DNA of 38,912 nucleotides from a virus (lineage: Duplodnaviria; Heunggongvirae; Uroviricota; Caudoviricetes). Both the position numbers and the translations under genes were made by a program. The stretch is taken from the IMG/VR virus record IMGVR_UViG_2740892107_000002; one strand, 5' to 3'. Numbering within the stretch: the first letter of the stretch is position 1; each line of letters begins with the position of its first letter. Below the pieces are notes generated by a model, which was not told the origin of the DNA, made no database searches, and was given only the letters and a program-made list of their open reading frames with translations. Shown here piece by piece: positions 971 to 4,641 of this stretch.

Positions 971-1543
971 TTACATTTCAGGTTGCGTTATGACAGTCCC
1001 AACAGGGTGATAGCGGTAGATCGTTGACAGTCCAATATCATAGATAATTGCCAGCCGCTTTCTGTCATACCCTTTCTGGAGCAATCTTGCGATCTGCTCA
1101 TGCTGCTCCTTCGTCAGTTTCGGGCGACGTCCTCCAACTCTTCCTTGTGCTCGCGCAGCAGCCAGTCCAGCCAGCGTGCGCTCAACTATCAGTTCACGCT
1201 CCATTTCTGCCAGTGCACCCATCATATGAAAAAAGAACCTTCCCATCGGAGTGCTGGTATCGATTGAATCCGTCAGACTGCGAAAATTGACACCTTTTGC
1301 GCGTAGCTCTTCTGTGAGAGCAATGAGGTGTTTCATTCTTCTACCCAACCGATCCAGCTTCCAGACCACCAATGTATCCCCTCTTTTAAGGCACTTTAAA
1401 GCGCGTTTCAGGCCTGGTCGTTCCGACTTGGTTCCGCTCATTTTGTCCTCAAAAATCTGTTCACATCCTGCGCACATTAATGCATTGCGTTGCAAATCTG
1501 TGTTTTGGTCATTTGTTGACACACGTATGTAGCCAATCAGCAT
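971..1543 (-). CDS. serine DNA invertase (Gin/Pin/Cin/Hin family)
   Basis: [22 protein letters not shown]...[15 protein letters not shown]...[24 protein letters not shown]..., near-identical in pattern to Gin/Pin as recalled. ATG at 1543 with AAAGGGAG upstream; the track ORF start at 1672 is an upstream extension. Confidence 0.92.
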
Positions 1544-1597
1544 TAAAAATACTCCCTTTTGAGTGGTTAAAGTACTGAGATAATGTGGGGAGGATTT

Positions 1598-1623
1598 GAG
1601 AGATAAACGTTGGTTTGGGGGAA
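1598..1623. other. gix/hix-like invertase crossover site 1 (approximate 26 bp)
   Basis: On the minus strand TTCCCCCAAACC-AA-CGTTTATCTCTC: 12-bp half sites around a 2-bp AA core, similar to hix/gix architecture; lies at the 5' edge of a fibre C-terminal cassette. Confidence 0.6.
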
Positions 1624-2043
1624 GGCTCGGCGCTGCCCGTTGGTGTACCTGTTCCGTGGCCCACTGCCACACCGCCAGCAGGCTGGTTAAAGTGCGACGG
1701 GCGCGCCTTTACAAAAGAACAATATCCTGTTCTGGCCAGAGTCTACCCGACCCTCCGTCTTCCCGATTTGCGCGGTGAGTTTATCCGTGGATGGGACGAC
1801 GGGCGAAAAGTGGATACAGGGCGCGATCTGCTTTCACGGCAGGATGGTACAAGTTTTTCTCATTACGCAGGTAATTTTGACATTGGGTCTGGTCATTCAA
1901 TCAATAACTATGACCAAATCCTTGACAACCAACCTGGATTCTCCCGTTTTTCATTTGCAGGTCCTTCGCGAGGCGATGGGGTTAATTATGTGACCATTCG
2001 TCCCCGTAACATTGCGTTTAATTACATCGTAAGGGCGGCATAG
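1615..2043 (+). CDS. alternative tail-fibre C-terminal cassette C (promoterless, silent orientation)
   Basis: Translation GEGSALPVGVPVPWPTATPPAGWLKCDGRAFTKEQYPVLARVYPTLRLPDLRGEFIRGWDDGRKVDTGR... and C-terminal RPRNIAFNYIVRAA parallel the C-terminus of the expressed fibre; frame is open from the crossover site; no own RBS or ATG expected. Confidence 0.7.
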   Translation: MGEGSALPVGVPVPWPTATPPAGWLKCDGRAFTKEQYPVLARVYPTLRLPDLRGEFIRGWDDGRKVDTGRDLLSRQDGTSFSHYAGNFDIGSGHSINNYDQILDNQPGFSRFSFAGPSRGDGVNYVTIRPRNIAFNYIVRAA

Positions 2044-2062
2044 AAACGTTGGTTTAGGAGAA
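2037..2062. other. gix/hix-like invertase crossover site 2 (approximate)
   Basis: On the minus strand TTCTCCTAAACC-AA-CGTTTCTATGCC; same orientation as site 1; sits between the two plus-strand cassettes. Confidence 0.6.
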
Positions 2063-2083
2063 GGCTCGGCGCTACCCGTTGGT

Positions 2084-2566
2084 GTGCCTGTTCCGTGGCC
2101 CACCGCCACACCGCCAGCAGGCTGGTTAAAGTGCGACGGGCGCGCCTTTACAAAAGAACAATATCCTGTTCTGGCCAGAGTCTACCCGACCCTCCGTCTT
2201 CCCGATTTACGCGGTGAGTTTATCCGTGGATGGGACGACGGGCGCAAAGTTGATACAGGACGTAAGTTGCTGTCCGCACAAGGGGCAACGCTGTTAAGAA
2301 CAGCAATGCTGGATTATTATAACCAGGACACTACGGGAACCTCGGGGATAGTCGGCATGGGATTCAACAATGAAGATTCCATTACAGACCTTCGTGAGGG
2401 CAGCTTTAAAATGCCGGACGGGACAACATTCAGCGATCCTGTCGTGGCAATGTCAGACAATGGTATGCAGGCTACTATTCTGACCTCTATCAGAAGCGGG
2501 TATGCGAAGGGTATCACTGTCAGACCCCGTAGCATTGCACTTAATTACATTGTGAGGGCAGTTTAA
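2084..2566 (+). CDS. alternative tail-fibre C-terminal cassette B (promoterless, silent orientation)
   Basis: Same conserved N-terminal segment (PVPWPTATPPAGWLKCDGRAFTKEQYPVLARVYPTLRLPDLRGEFIRGWDDGRKVDTGR), divergent middle, conserved end RPRSIALNYIVRAV; followed directly by a tail-fibre assembly gene. Confidence 0.7.
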   Translation: MPVPWPTATPPAGWLKCDGRAFTKEQYPVLARVYPTLRLPDLRGEFIRGWDDGRKVDTGRKLLSAQGATLLRTAMLDYYNQDTTGTSGIVGMGFNNEDSITDLREGSFKMPDGTTFSDPVVAMSDNGMQATILTSIRSGYAKGITVRPRSIALNYIVRAV

Positions 2567-3180
2567 TGAGTAACACTGCAGTTCTGGATGAAAACGGTAT
2601 CGCCACTGTAGCGGGCGATATCACTGTATATCACTATGACGAGGAAACCCGGGAATACACCTCATCCTCTGTGGAGTATCTCGCCCTTGGGGTGGGTACT
2701 CCGGCACATTCGTGCGCCGATGCACCGCCGGAAGCAATTTCGGGTTACGTGGTTTGCCGGACTGCCACGCTGAACGGGTGGGAGCATGTGCCTGATCACC
2801 GCGGCGAGACGGTATACAGCACGGAGAACGGTAACCCCGTTCTGATTACCCAACCGGGTGATTACCCGGCGGACACCACCACAAAACAGCCAGCCACGCC
2901 ATGGGATACCTGGAACGGTGAGGCGTGGGTAACCGATACTGAACGGCAGCGAGCCGCAGAACTGGAGGTTGCCAGACAGCAACGCCAGCAACGGGTGAAA
3001 CAGGCGATGGCGTCCGTCGATCTTATCAACCTCAAACTGCGTGCTGGTCGCAGTCTGAAACCAGAAGAAACGGCAAAACTGAACGCCGTGCTGGATTATA
3101 TCGACGAGCTGAACGCACTGGATATCAGCAAGGCACCTGAAATCAGCTGGCCGGAAGCGCCACTGGCGCTTGCCGGCTGA
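2566..3180 (+). CDS. tail fibre assembly protein (Tfa/Mu U-like), currently in inverted orientation
   Basis: C-terminal region ...WNGEAWVTDTERQRAAELEVARQQRQQRVKQAMASVDLINLKLRAGRSLKPEETAKLNAVLDYIDELNALDISKAPEISWPEAP is typical of phage Tfa chaperones; ATG overlaps the stop of cassette B. Confidence 0.8.
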   Translation: MSNTAVLDENGIATVAGDITVYHYDEETREYTSSSVEYLALGVGTPAHSCADAPPEAISGYVVCRTATLNGWEHVPDHRGETVYSTENGNPVLITQPGDYPADTTTKQPATPWDTWNGEAWVTDTERQRAAELEVARQQRQQRVKQAMASVDLINLKLRAGRSLKPEETAKLNAVLDYIDELNALDISKAPEISWPEAPLALAG

Positions 3181-3186
3181 ACGGTA

Positions 3187-4641
3187 TCACGCCGCCCTCA
3201 CGATATAGTTAAATGCGATATTGCGGGGGCGAGCTGATACATAAGCCCACCAGTCATATCTTTGTGCACCTTTAGAGGATGCATCAAATATCCACTTTTT
3301 GCCATTTAAGACCCCCAGTTGATTAGAGGTTAAAGCGTCACCAAATCCGTATTGTGTAGAGCCGAGCGAACTGATATCTCCGGTATCATTATCATCAAAA
3401 CCGGATACGATAGTCCCTTCCTGAAATGAAAGTAGCGCACGCCCGGTATCAACCTTGCGACCACCGTCCCATCCACGGATAAACTCACCGCGCAAATCGG
3501 GAAGACGGAGGGTCGGGTAGACTCTGGCCAGAACAGGATATTGTTCTTTGGTGAACGTAGCTCCGTTGCACTGTAACCAGCCTGCTGGCGGTGTGGCGGT
3601 GGGCCATGGAACCGGTACACCAACAGGCAATGCAGAGCCTTCCCCCAAACCAAGGTAATTGAGGACATCTTTTATACTGCCCTTAGCGATAATAGCGCGA
3701 CCAATAGCTGTAAGGGTTGCCAGCTCTGCGCGGTCTGCTCCGGTAAAATAAGGCAACCGATCTGCTGCAGTGGCAAGTCCTGCCAGAGCAGTGAGCGTGG
3801 CATCTGCCGGTTGTTTTCCGTTTGCCAGATCGTATGCAGCCTTGACCGCTTTCGGTGTGGCGGCCAGTATTTCAGACGTGCTGTTGATGGCACTGCTCAA
3901 TTGTACGGTGCCTTTTGCCGTCAGCGAGGCAGCAGGCACTCCCGTTATCTGACTCCACGGGTGAGTGTGGCTGACGGGCGCCTTGCCGGCTGCAAGGTCG
4001 TATGCAGCCTTGACGGCCTTTGGTGTGGCGGCCAGCGTTTCAGAGGTGCTGTTGGTGTCACTGCTCAATTGTACGGTGCCTTTTGCCGTCAGCGAGGCAG
4101 CAGGCACTCCCGTTATCTGACTCCACGGGTGAGTGTGGCTGACGGGCGCCTTGCCGGCTGCAAGGTCGTATGCAGCCTTGACCGCCTTCGGCGTGGCAGC
4201 CTCAGTTTCTGATTGACTGTCCGTGGCGCTGCTCAGTTGTACGGTGCCTTTTGCCGTCAGCGAGGCAGCAGGCACTCCCGTTATCTGACTCCACGGGTGA
4301 GTATGGCTGACGGGGGCCTTGCCGGCAGCCAGGTCATATGCAGCCTTGACGGCCTTTGGTGTGGCGGCCAGCGTTTCAGAGGTGCTGTTGGTGGCACTGC
4401 TCAGTTGGGTGAACCCCTTAGCTGTCAGTGTCGCGTCCGGGTGGTTACGGGAACGTACGTGTTCAGCCAGTGACTGTGCGGCTTCCTCCGTTTTTTTCTT
4501 CAGCCATTTCGTCCTGTTTGCCAGTTGCCGGGGGGCTCGATTTGATATCCCGTCTGCACCACCCAGAACCGGATCTGATGTCTCCAGTTGATAGATATTT
4601 TCTTCCCACTTTTCTGTTTCATTCAGGTTTCCCATAATCAA
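3187..4641 (-). CDS. tail fibre protein (Mu S-like), constant N-terminal part fused to currently expressed variable C-terminus A
   Basis: 484 aa; four tandem copies of a 56-aa repeat (LTAKGTVQLSSATNSTSETLAATPKAVKAAYDLAAGKAPVSHTHPWSQITGVPAAS), a motif recalled from enterobacterial side tail fibres; C-terminus shares the GEGSALPVGVPVPW...RPRNIAFNYIVRAA frame with the cassettes. Confidence 0.88.
   Translation of the reverse strand: MIMGNLNETEKWEENIYQLETSDPVLGGADGISNRAPRQLANRTKWLKKKTEEAAQSLAEHVRSRNHPDATLTAKGFTQLSSATNSTSETLAATPKAVKAAYDLAAGKAPVSHTHPWSQITGVPAASLTAKGTVQLSSATDSQSETEAATPKAVKAAYDLAAGKAPVSHTHPWSQITGVPAASLTAKGTVQLSSDTNSTSETLAATPKAVKAAYDLAAGKAPVSHTHPWSQITGVPAASLTAKGTVQLSSAINSTSEILAATPKAVKAAYDLANGKQPADATLTALAGLATAADRLPYFTGADRAELATLTAIGRAIIAKGSIKDVLNYLGLGEGSALPVGVPVPWPTATPPAGWLQCNGATFTKEQYPVLARVYPTLRLPDLRGEFIRGWDGGRKVDTGRALLSFQEGTIVSGFDDNDTGDISSLGSTQYGFGDALTSNQLGVLNGKKWIFDASSKGAQRYDWWAYVSARPRNIAFNYIVRAA
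3640..3665. other. gix/hix-like invertase crossover site 3 (approximate), inside the expressed tail-fibre gene, inverted relative to sites 1 and 2
   Basis: Plus strand TTCCCCCAAACC-AA-GGTAATTGAGGA; same left half site and AA core as sites 1 and 2; falls at the constant/variable junction of the fibre (..NYLGLGEGSALP..). Confidence 0.6.
3815..4428. repeat. tandem 168-bp repeats (about 3.6 copies) inside the tail-fibre gene
   Basis: Near-identical DNA blocks recur with a 168-bp period, encoding the 56-aa repeat; they generate spurious antisense ORFs (3811..4212, 4213..4473). Confidence 0.85.

Follow-up and report, generated by a model that had tools for sequence, protein, structure and literature searches.

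Evidence for a Min-type multiple DNA-inversion switch of tail-fibre tips at the end of a BcepMu-like transposable prophage

The closest described relative of the switch analysed here is Min, a multiple DNA inversion system of plasmid p15B that was reportedly worked out by Sandmeier, Iida and Arber in 1990-92 and is said to have six cassettes. For comparison we used a region of pMCR_SCKP-LL83 (MF510496) that stands in for p15B min itself and is, according to its authors, 99% identical to it with 92% coverage (PMC5786510). This Min-like array contains nine crossover sites, one tfa (tail-fibre assembly) gene and nine abutting short Collar cassettes (143-168 aa), all nine of which end in RPRN[IV]AFNYIVRA.

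Three other systems share parts of this design. The G segment of phage Mu (with Gin), the C segment of P1 (with Cin) and the corresponding DNA of P88 have the same enzyme family and site architecture as the locus described below. As there, the crossover in Mu falls in the L-G-L codons of the fibre gene, and the invertase gene is next to the invertible DNA but not part of it. However, in Mu, P1 and P88 there are two sites, and the genes form two mirror-image sets, each with its own tfa (U and U'). In the shufflon of R64, several short 3' cassettes are shuffled onto a constant 5' part by multiple inversions, but by the tyrosine recombinase Rci acting on different repeats in the adhesin gene pilV. 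Finally, Forde et al. 2014 found in PacBio reads a single flip in prophage Phi2 of the ST131 strain EC958 and described two sites in a mirror-image, two-allele layout (PMC4134206).

We analysed a 38.9-kb stretch of E. coli DNA (the window) that contains a whole BcepMu-like transposable prophage (Table 1). The prophage is inserted between otsB and araH and is flanked by a 6-bp duplication, CCATTT, at 887-892 and 37845-37850. We conclude, with a probability of roughly 0.92, that one end of this prophage carries a Min-type multiple DNA-inversion switch operated by a Din-family serine invertase. The switch is a small version of a Min-type system and ordinary in kind: it has three sites and cassettes compared to nine in the Min-like array, and four isomers compared to hundreds. 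The host elements also differ, a P1-like plasmid for Min and a transposable prophage here.

Table 1. Features of the prophage and its switch region (positions in the window)
Feature	Position	Strand	Description
Whole BcepMu-like transposable prophage	893..37844		TG...CA ends; 36.95 kb
DNA invertase gene	971..1543	minus	190 aa; Din family (Gin/Hin/Cin/Pin/Min)
Crossover site 1	1598..1623	+	GAGAGATAAACG TT GGTTTGGGGGAA; core 1610-1611; adjoins invertase gene
Cassette C, silent	1612..2043	+	143 codons; Collar domain; ends RPRNIAFNYIVRAA
Crossover site 2	2037..2062	+	GGCATAGAAACG TT GGTTTAGGAGAA; core 2049-2050; internal, direct relative to site 1
Cassette B, silent	2051..2566	+	171 codons; Collar domain; ends RPRSIALNYIVRAV
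tfa, only copy	2566..3180	+	204 aa; Pfam Caudo_TAP, E=6e-27
Cassette A	3187..3651	minus	154 codons; tip now fused to fibre gene
Crossover site 3	3640..3665	minus	TCCTCAATTACC TT GGTTTGGGGGAA on minus strand; core 3652-3653; in fibre gene
Tail-fibre constant part	3654..4635	minus	likely start ATG 4635; ORF runs to TTG 4641

The first-pass annotation had placed a Gin/Pin-family invertase beside the sites, and this identification was borne out. The open reading frame spans 971..1672, and the ATG at 1543 is the real start, giving a product of 190 aa. Like other Din-family serine recombinases of about this length, it has an N-terminal resolvase catalytic domain (Pfam Resolvase, E=8e-51) and a C-terminal HTH (HTH_7, E=1e-12). 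It is 76% identical to Mu Gin in local alignment (tblastn) and 71.5% identical globally; its global identity is 84% to the enzyme of the Min-like array and 80% to that of P88. In RefSeq copies the protein is WP_000904922.1. A search for a sigma-70-like promoter at the gene found none. Din-family systems depend on a Fis-bound recombinational enhancer in cis, usually in the 5' part of the invertase gene. A 15-mer matching the Fis consensus is present at nt 71-85 of the gene and is kept in 4/4 invertase genes compared, a second Fis site is not clear, and the region at nt 71-85 had no special nucleotide conservation across those four genes. We infer that the switch would depend on Fis and an enhancer.

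The three crossover sites have the organization typical of Din-family systems: 26 bp, with imperfectly symmetric 12-bp halves around a 2-bp core, and inverted around invertible DNA. The cassette-proximal half is shared (GGTTTRGGRGAA) and the distal halves differ (GAGAGATAAACG, GGCATAGAAACG and TCCTCAATTACC). Searching the whole window with AAACSTTGGTTTRGGRGAAGG, allowing up to 3 mismatches, found these three sites only, and the same search found no match in 100 shuffles of the window. The sites align with gixL and gixR of Mu (read from AF083977) and with the nine sites of the Min-like array, which have the same form, N12-TT-GGTTTRGGGGAA. The positions and the gix-like character proposed in the first-pass annotation hold. 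It had described the shared half-site as the left one, but this is the cassette-proximal half. The AA core it had reported does not hold either: in the direction of its cassette every site has TT as its core, and AA stands on the + strand at site 3 only. Site 3 lies at codons N-Y-L-G-L-G-E-G of the fibre gene and, as had been noted, is inverted relative to the other two. That is, there are more than two sites, with sites 1 and 2 direct and site 3 inverted, and the invertible segments overlap, as in Min.

The fibre gene is built in the same way as the Min-like array, with a constant 5' part followed by abutting promoterless 3' cassettes that each begin at a site. We took the start of the constant part from the PGAP lengths of related copies. 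It contains 168-nt tandem repeats (at ~3815-4428) that correspond to four Phage_fiber_2 units, and it ends in ...YLGLGEGSALPVGVPVPWP, as does that of the Min-like array. The cassettes have conserved collar starts and ends: the 62 invariant columns of their alignment all fall at the start (GLGEGSALPVG...) or at the end (...RPRNIAFNYIVRAA), and the variable middle is presumably the part that binds the receptor. The silent cassettes had been predicted to encode alternative C-termini with the same end. They do encode alternative C-termini, but cassette B ends in RPRSIALNYIVRAV and not in RPRNIAFNYIVRAA. One of the cassettes in the Min-like array is 85% identical to cassette C, whose stop codon sits in the left half of site 2. 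The cassettes also resemble the tip of T4 gp37 (PDB 2XGF). At the start of the cassettes, the alignment is with the first part of the gp37 fragment whose structure is solved (E=2e-13); at their end, the last residues, NIAFNYIVR (part of the conserved ...NYIVRA end), align with the extreme C-terminus of gp37. Cassette A is homologous both to this tip and to a short tail fibre (9CUY). In contrast, the variable middle of T4 gp37 is much longer than the ~60-90 aa found here, and gp37 does not switch tips by inversion.

We inverted the sequence in silico at the core dinucleotides. The fibre gene as present, with tip A, encodes 484 aa. Inversion between sites 2 and 3 produced an uninterrupted fusion of 501 aa with tip B, and inversion between sites 1 and 3 an uninterrupted fusion of 473 aa with tip C. 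These are the fusions to the constant part that had been predicted from the first pass, and they occur in natural isomers (below). Cassette frames disrupted by stops after precise inversion had been named as grounds for giving up the switch; both frames stay open.

The region can be treated as two segments, X (cassette C) and Y (cassette B, tfa and cassette A), of which only four arrangements can be reached: A (X+, Y+), B (X+, Y-), C1 (Y-, X-) and C2 (Y+, X-). In the proposed mechanism, the invertase would recombine site 3 with the oppositely oriented site 1 or site 2, and after one inversion site 1 could also recombine with the flipped site 2. Reaching all of the isomers takes 2x3, 1x3 and 1x2' events. 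The arrangements would place tip A, B or C, each a small collar-type distal domain, on the constant shaft.

All four isomers are present in public complete E. coli genomes. Each isomer made in silico matched its own set of complete genomes (99% coverage, 98.5% identity). We classified seven loci directly and found state A in two (L008, L009), B in two (L007, L010), C1 in one (L011) and C2 in two (L006, L012). Three genomes with the identical otsB insertion were in three different states: EcPF7 in C2, TUM1857 in B and FCI23 in A. The exact three-cassette module is also carried by P1-like plasmids. In a census of junctions (identity >=99%), the constant part was joined to cassette A in 125 records and to cassette B in 186; the number joined to cassette C, estimated from evenly spaced rows, was roughly 130-170. 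Full-length state counts were 169/188/161/145, and these are probably partly cross-counted, because their sum exceeds the ~590-610 genomes that have the site 3 junction. Our evidence for switching is a comparison between genomes; the window's own strain is known from its sequence.

We also determined where the exchange occurred. The seven natural loci contain hybrid sites, combining left halves L1, L2 or L3 with right halves R-A, R-B or R-C, and no bases were gained or lost. For site 2, the hybrids L2|R-A and L2|R-B are present in other genomes. The cassettes were all intact (0-2 mismatches over 432-516 nt), the 60-nt left flanks were all exact, and we found no chimeric cassette heads in these loci. 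Exchange was therefore confined to the vicinity of the core. Bounded on one side by the last base at which the left half-sites differ and on the other by the first at which the right ones do, the interval was 7 nt (TTGGTTT) with an R-B partner and ~19 nt for R-A versus R-C. That is, exchange was conservative and reciprocal at a resolution of 7-19 nt, not 2.

The position of exchange bears on the possibility that RecA-dependent homologous recombination, and not the invertase, makes the arrangements. Repeats of 229-244 nt that are 86-94% identical start at the three sites, and these inverted cassette heads are in principle long enough and similar enough to be substrates for homologous inversion. 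However, exchange in the seven loci was always within the short interval around the core and left no chimeric heads, and it took place at 26-bp sites matching those of gix and Min type. In addition, all four states are common, and in EC958 a 2067-bp segment in the alternative orientation formed a separate PacBio contig from one culture (PMC4134206); these two observations agree better with site-specific inversion. Recombination between the heads is very improbable as the source of the arrangements and is already largely refuted.

Alternatively, an inverted repeat could have been misassembled, so that the differing orientations in public genomes would be artefacts. The deposited genome of PhiKM breaks within a cassette head, and PGAP annotations of the region are inconsistent. 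Against this, complete genomes produced by many laboratories have exact, reciprocal junctions, adapter and hairpin artefacts were excluded for the EC958 inversion (PMC4134206), and switches in two other ST131 prophages ('Entero_P88' and 'Entero_BP_4795') were confirmed by PCR and restriction digest (10.1101/2022.05.07.487787). We regard artefact as very improbable. The same study saw only a 'translocation', by genome comparison, in a prophage called 'Burkho_phiE255', which we take to be the BcepMu-like element described here.

Phi2 of EC958 is the same element as the one in the window, with ~98.5% nucleotide identity in the ST131 copies, which are inserted next to aroA and not between otsB and araH. 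The published 2067-bp invertible segment is the interval from site 1 to site 3. Site 1 has the same sequence as 'Phi2_3prime' (Table 3 of PMC4134206), and the left half of site 3 is identical to that of 'Phi2_5prime'. Neither site 2, which is internal, nor the third tip appears in the published description, and the same goes for the four isomers and the single tfa. The tip switch is real and active, and our analysis confirms the observation made in the first-pass annotation. The Min kind of system (since 1990) and one flip in EC958 were already known; site 2, the third tip and the four isomers are added here.

Of the other known systems, the canonical Mu G or P1 C layout does not fit: the locus has three tips but a single tfa, and two of its three sites are direct repeats. 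Nor is the locus an R64-type shufflon: Rci, its repeats and pilV are all absent, the recombinase is a serine resolvase/invertase and the target is a phage fibre gene. The term shufflon-like, used in the first-pass annotation, is apt as a functional analogy but not in kind, the proper relative being Min of p15B.

The single tfa gene raises the question of how the tips are chaperoned. The start of tfa overlaps the stop codon of cassette B, the only cassette with an adjacent tfa, and tfa is convergent with cassette A. It is co-oriented with the fibre operon in states B and C1 and antisense to it in A and C2. No crossover site lies between tfa and cassette A, so tip A cannot be co-transcribed with tfa from the late operon. 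As the first-pass annotation stated, then, tip A as now expressed necessarily lacks a co-oriented chaperone gene. The annotation was also right that this asymmetry is unlike the Mu G segment, but it is not an oddity of this locus. The Min-like array has one tfa (56% identical to the one here) for its 9 cassettes, and 10 of 11 viral loci with at least 3 cassettes have one. Judged from these loci, a single tfa is the norm for Min-type arrays.

It is possible that the switch flips but is a relic, in which only B, and perhaps C1, would give infectious phage, whereas A and C2 would in effect be fibre-defective 'off' states and not further host ranges. The antisense orientation of tfa in A and C2 is consistent with this, and no sigma-70-like promoter was found at tfa. 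Of 57 viral loci with one cassette, 53 have a co-oriented tfa immediately after the collar cassette, which suggests that such tips normally need one. Yet cassette A is intact and in frame in every copy examined (0-1 mismatch), and many phages have arrays of 3-9 cassettes with one tfa, which would be surprising if most cassettes were useless. T4 gp37, whose collar start and C-terminal motif are the same, relies on non-adjacent chaperones and on general ones (PMC9608196). We consider a relic of this kind unlikely. If tip A is functional, then, tentatively, either some collar-type tips might fold without a dedicated Tfa or tfa might be expressed whatever its orientation. A late promoter that has escaped recognition could bring about the latter, as could sister copies present while the element replicates by transposition.

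Based on the analogy with Mu and P1, we infer that switching would change host range. Switching in lysogens would then give progeny with up to three adsorption specificities. If some tips do fold without Tfa, a flip would change not only the receptor specificity but also whether a chaperone is needed, and this, if true, would be a general and unstudied property of Min-type arrays, which have 3-9 tips and one tfa. The prophage is common in the pandemic ST131 lineage, and there and in P1-like phage-plasmids the switch has three tips, not two as described. Flipping is frequent enough to have spread closely related genomes over all four arrangements, and it explains the recurrent 'mis-assemblies', 'translocation' calls and pseudogene annotations in the region. 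The cassettes are a natural set of compact, exchangeable receptor-binding parts for fibre engineering.

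The first-pass annotation had noted three crossover sites and two promoterless cassettes beside an invertase gene, and had proposed that inversion switches the tip of the tail fibre. Both the observation and the interpretation were right: the predicted fusions are in frame, and natural isomers carry the predicted hybrid sites.

The sites lie in a complete BcepMu-like transposable prophage (893-37844; 36.95 kb), wholly within the window; it shares 98.9-99.6% identity with phage PhiKM of the genus Bcepmuvirus. The prophage is inserted in the otsB-araH intergenic region, has TG...CA termini, and is flanked by a 6-bp target duplication (CCATTT at 887-892 and 37845-37850). 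Near-identical copies adjoin aroA in ST131, as expected of a transposing phage. The final genes of the prophage, on the minus strand, encode homologues of the baseplate proteins gpV/W/J/I and then the tail fibre.

Features of the fibre-switching region and its flank (window coordinates)
Feature	Position	Strand	Description
otsB	1-858	minus	
Invertase gene	971-1543	minus	190 aa; Resolvase and HTH_7 domains
Site 1	1598-1623	plus	26-bp crossover site
Cassette C	1612-2043	plus	promoterless Collar ORF
Site 2	2037-2062	plus	26-bp crossover site
Cassette B	2051-2566	plus	promoterless Collar ORF
tfa	2566-3180	plus	
Tail-fibre gene	3187-4635	minus	four Phage_fiber_2 repeats and C-terminal Collar domain
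Site 3	3640-3665	minus	26-bp crossover site

Read towards the cassette, site 1 is GAGAGATAAACG-TT-GGTTTGGGGGAA, site 2 is GGCATAGAAACG-TT-GGTTTAGGAGAA, and site 3, on the minus strand, is TCCTCAATTACC-TT-GGTTTGGGGGAA. These sites share the form of Mu gixL (TTATCCAAAACC-TC-GGTTTACAGGAA) and gixR, both taken directly from the Mu genome sequence. Site 3, as in Mu, falls in L-G-L codons of the fibre protein. A degenerate consensus, allowing up to three mismatches, matched only these three sites in the whole window and gave no matches in 100 shuffles.

We inverted the DNA in silico between the core dinucleotides. Inversion of 2049-3653 put cassette B at the end of a 501-aa fibre, with tfa immediately downstream. 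Inversion of 1610-3653 gave a 473-aa fibre with cassette C as its end, after which come silent B and then tfa. The first-pass annotation had named cassette frames broken by stops after inversion as grounds for refuting its model; no stop codons or frameshifts arose in either inversion. The invertase acts only on sites in opposite orientation, and sites 1 and 2 point the same way. Therefore, only four arrangements of segment X (cassette C) and segment Y (cassette B, tfa and cassette A) can be reached: A (X+, Y+), B (X+, Y-), C1 (Y-, X-) and C2 (Y+, X-).

The four in-silico isomers each matched a different set of complete E. coli genomes, mostly ST131, with 99% coverage and 98.5% identity. In loci fetched as examples, we assigned each site a left-half type (L1, L2 or L3) and a right-half type (R-A, R-B or R-C). 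The hybrid sites in all seven classified loci were exactly as predicted. Two loci were in state A (L008, L009), two in state B (L007, L010), one in state C1 (L011), and two in state C2 (L006, L012). Three genomes had the prophage at the identical otsB position, indicating descent from one transposition event, and each was in a different state (EcPF7, C2; TUM1857, B; FCI23, A).

Cassettes in the seven loci were intact, with 0-2 mismatches over 432-516 nt; the left flanks (60 nt) were exact, and no chimeric cassette heads were found. Thus, exchange took place in the interval bounded by the last base that differs among the left half-sites and the first that differs among the right half-sites. This interval is 7 nt (TTGGTTT) with R-B as partner and ~19 nt for R-A versus R-C. 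RecA-type homologous recombination in the 229-244-nt repeated heads of the cassettes was rejected because the junctions are exact and exchange is confined near the core. This argues for site-specific exchange. The exactness of the junctions also led us to reject assembly artefacts as the source of the arrangements.

We estimated how common each tip is. The site 3 junction was present in ~590-610 of 5,426 genomes. Junctions of the constant part of the fibre gene with A and with B were counted using 460-nt queries read by identity bands; at 99% identity or more, the A junction was found in 125 records and the B junction in 186. This reading fails for the C junction, where the mean identity is pulled down by the next same-strand cassette head, added to the match as a second piece. 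A 532-nt C junction query was read by coverage instead, but its constant part was too short: the silent C cassette by itself gives 82% coverage. Only evenly spaced rows were therefore usable, and these gave an estimate of roughly 130-170 records with the C junction. The remaining genomes with a site 3 junction carry variant cassettes. Full-length 3.8-kb queries for the four isomers (at least 80% coverage) matched 169, 188, 161 and 145 genomes; these are upper bounds, with valid top matches. Because their sum exceeds the number of genomes with the junction and collinear pieces were joined, A and C2, and likewise B and C1, were probably partly cross-counted. All three tips are common among near-identical prophages, implying frequent switching.

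In many ST131 genomes, RefSeq/PGAP labels the fibre gene and silent cassettes as 'incomplete' pseudogenes (L009-L012, copies of window 3187-4635). In L009, L010 and L011, the ORF of the fused fibre is unbroken (432, 449 and 421 codons), and the labels are an annotation artefact of the variable architecture. In the PhiKM deposit (L001; PQ738613.1, 14442-14574), the fibre runs on into cassette C for its first 133 nt and stops there, and the invertase gene, tfa and other cassettes are missing. This break is likely an assembly collapse from a virion population of mixed orientation. The 168-nt (56-aa) Phage_fiber_2 shaft repeats (window 3815-4428) vary in copy number among otherwise near-identical prophages: three in ST131 and TUM1857, four in the window, and five in EcPF7 and FCI23. 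Fibre length thus varies independently of the tip switch, unless some assemblies collapsed repeats.

One flip of the same element is already known. Forde et al. (2014; PMC4134206) listed TCCTCAATTACCTTGGTTTAGGAGAA and GAGAGATAAACGTTGGTTTGGGGGAA as crossover sites of the EC958 prophage Phi2; they equal, in that order, the window's site 3 as it reads in state B and its site 1. Their 2067-bp invertible segment is the interval from site 1 to site 3, and the alternative orientation was a separate PacBio contig from a single culture. That report gives two sites per prophage and draws the layout as a mirror image; site 2 is absent from its text. In ST131 wound isolates, inversions were reported in two other prophages, and a 'translocation' of unclear impact was described in the fibre genes of a prophage called 'Burkho_phiE255' (bioRxiv 10.1101/2022.05.07.487787). 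We infer that this prophage is the BcepMu-like element of the window, since a rearrangement of X and Y would resemble a translocation.

The mechanism is Din-family multiple inversion of the Min type. The multiple-inversion class has been known since 1990. The first-pass annotation had called the system shufflon-like, which holds in that several tips are switched by inversion, but the enzyme is a Din-family invertase and that of shufflons is a tyrosine recombinase. The invertase shares 84% identity with the enzyme encoded in the pMCR_SCKP-LL83 multiple-inversion region, 80% with the P88 enzyme, and 71.5% (global) with Gin. The pMCR_SCKP-LL83 region (L015) is 99% identical to p15B min, according to its authors (PMC5786510). 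It has nine sites of the same form as the window's three, a single tfa, and nine Collar cassettes (143-168 aa) that start GLGEGSALPVG, all end with the motif RPRN[IV]AFNYIVRA, and each abut the next site. One of these cassettes shares 85% identity with cassette C, and the Tfa proteins are 56% identical. In contrast, P88 and Mu have the canonical two-site, two-tfa G-segment layout. The window element is a small Min-type system, neither a shufflon nor a canonical G segment.

The same invertase and three-cassette, one-tfa module is found in P1-like phage-plasmids of 92-95 kb (e.g. NZ_CP028585.2, NZ_OY754373.1 and NZ_MN101855.1), with 95-97.5% nucleotide identity, varying by plasmid. The plasmid looked at in detail, NZ_CP028585.2 (L013, 20942-23873), has the identical invertase protein accession, WP_000904922.1. 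Bcepmuvirus prophages and P1-like plasmids, which are unrelated types of phage, have this module in common. In plasmid p1_000533 (L013, ~8776, minus strand), the internal site has one G fewer in the run that follows its core (GGTTTGGGGAAG versus GGTTTGGGGGAAGG), placing that cassette out of frame if fused; the cause is either true inactivation or a sequencing error in the homopolymer. Two-site relatives (L005, which is phage 503046, CP025887.1; L028; and L029) have two cassettes and one tfa and lack cassette C. The second cassette of phage 503046 is none of A, B or C. These relatives may represent an ancestral state, or they may have arisen by deletion between sites 1 and 2, which are direct repeats.

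The first-pass annotation had remarked that only cassette B has an adjacent chaperone gene. This was borne out: no crossover site lies between tfa and cassette A, and whenever A is expressed tfa must therefore run antisense to the late operon. It is likewise antisense in state C2. The asymmetry had been described as unlike the Mu G segment. Mu does have two tfa genes, but a single tfa is the rule for Min-type arrays. Among 80 IMG/VR loci encoding such cassettes, exactly one tfa was present in 10 of the 11 with at least three cassettes; the lone exception, L032 (IMG/VR 2541047915_000010), has five Collar cassettes and two tfa. Seven two-cassette loci had one tfa and five had two. A co-oriented tfa directly followed the cassette in 53 of 57 single-cassette loci. 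This gene order suggests that collar tips are normally accompanied by Tfa.

For the chaperoning of tips A and C (in state C2) there are four options: a shared Tfa is expressed irrespective of orientation, the tips fold without Tfa, Tfa is supplied in trans, or these are non-infectious 'off' states. A scan of 860-4800 on both strands for sigma-70-like promoters, a class that does not cover phage late promoters, found none versus 3.0 expected from shuffles. It found neither an orientation-independent tfa promoter nor a promoter-like site upstream of the invertase gene. The invertase gene must have a weak or atypical promoter, which may overlap site 1. A search for a Fis enhancer in four invertase genes turned up one 15-mer fitting the Fis consensus, conserved at nt 71-85 in all of them, but no clear second site and no special nucleotide conservation of the region. 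Searching the PDB by sequence with Tfa gave no significant relative. Lambda Tfa can substitute for T4 gp38, and this would speak for a shared chaperone. T4 gp37 requires gp38 and gp57A, and in Tfa a variable N-terminal domain binds the fibre and a conserved C-terminal domain drives trimerisation (work summarised in PMC9608196).

In an alignment of 11 cassettes, all 62 invariant columns were at the two ends, and the middle varied freely. The cassette aligns with a solved fragment of the T4 gp37 tip (2XGF) at the start of the fragment (E=2e-13) and at its last residues, NIAFNYIVR, and it aligns over its full length with the short tail fibre 9CUY (E=2e-17). In the published gp37 structure, the chain runs outward to the tip and then back. 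With such a path, the conserved ends would form two halves of one collar domain, and the variable middle would be a receptor-binding insert. What is new here is the third site, the four-isomer logic and the population-level evidence, together with the link to Min and P1-like plasmids and the structural reading of the conserved ends.
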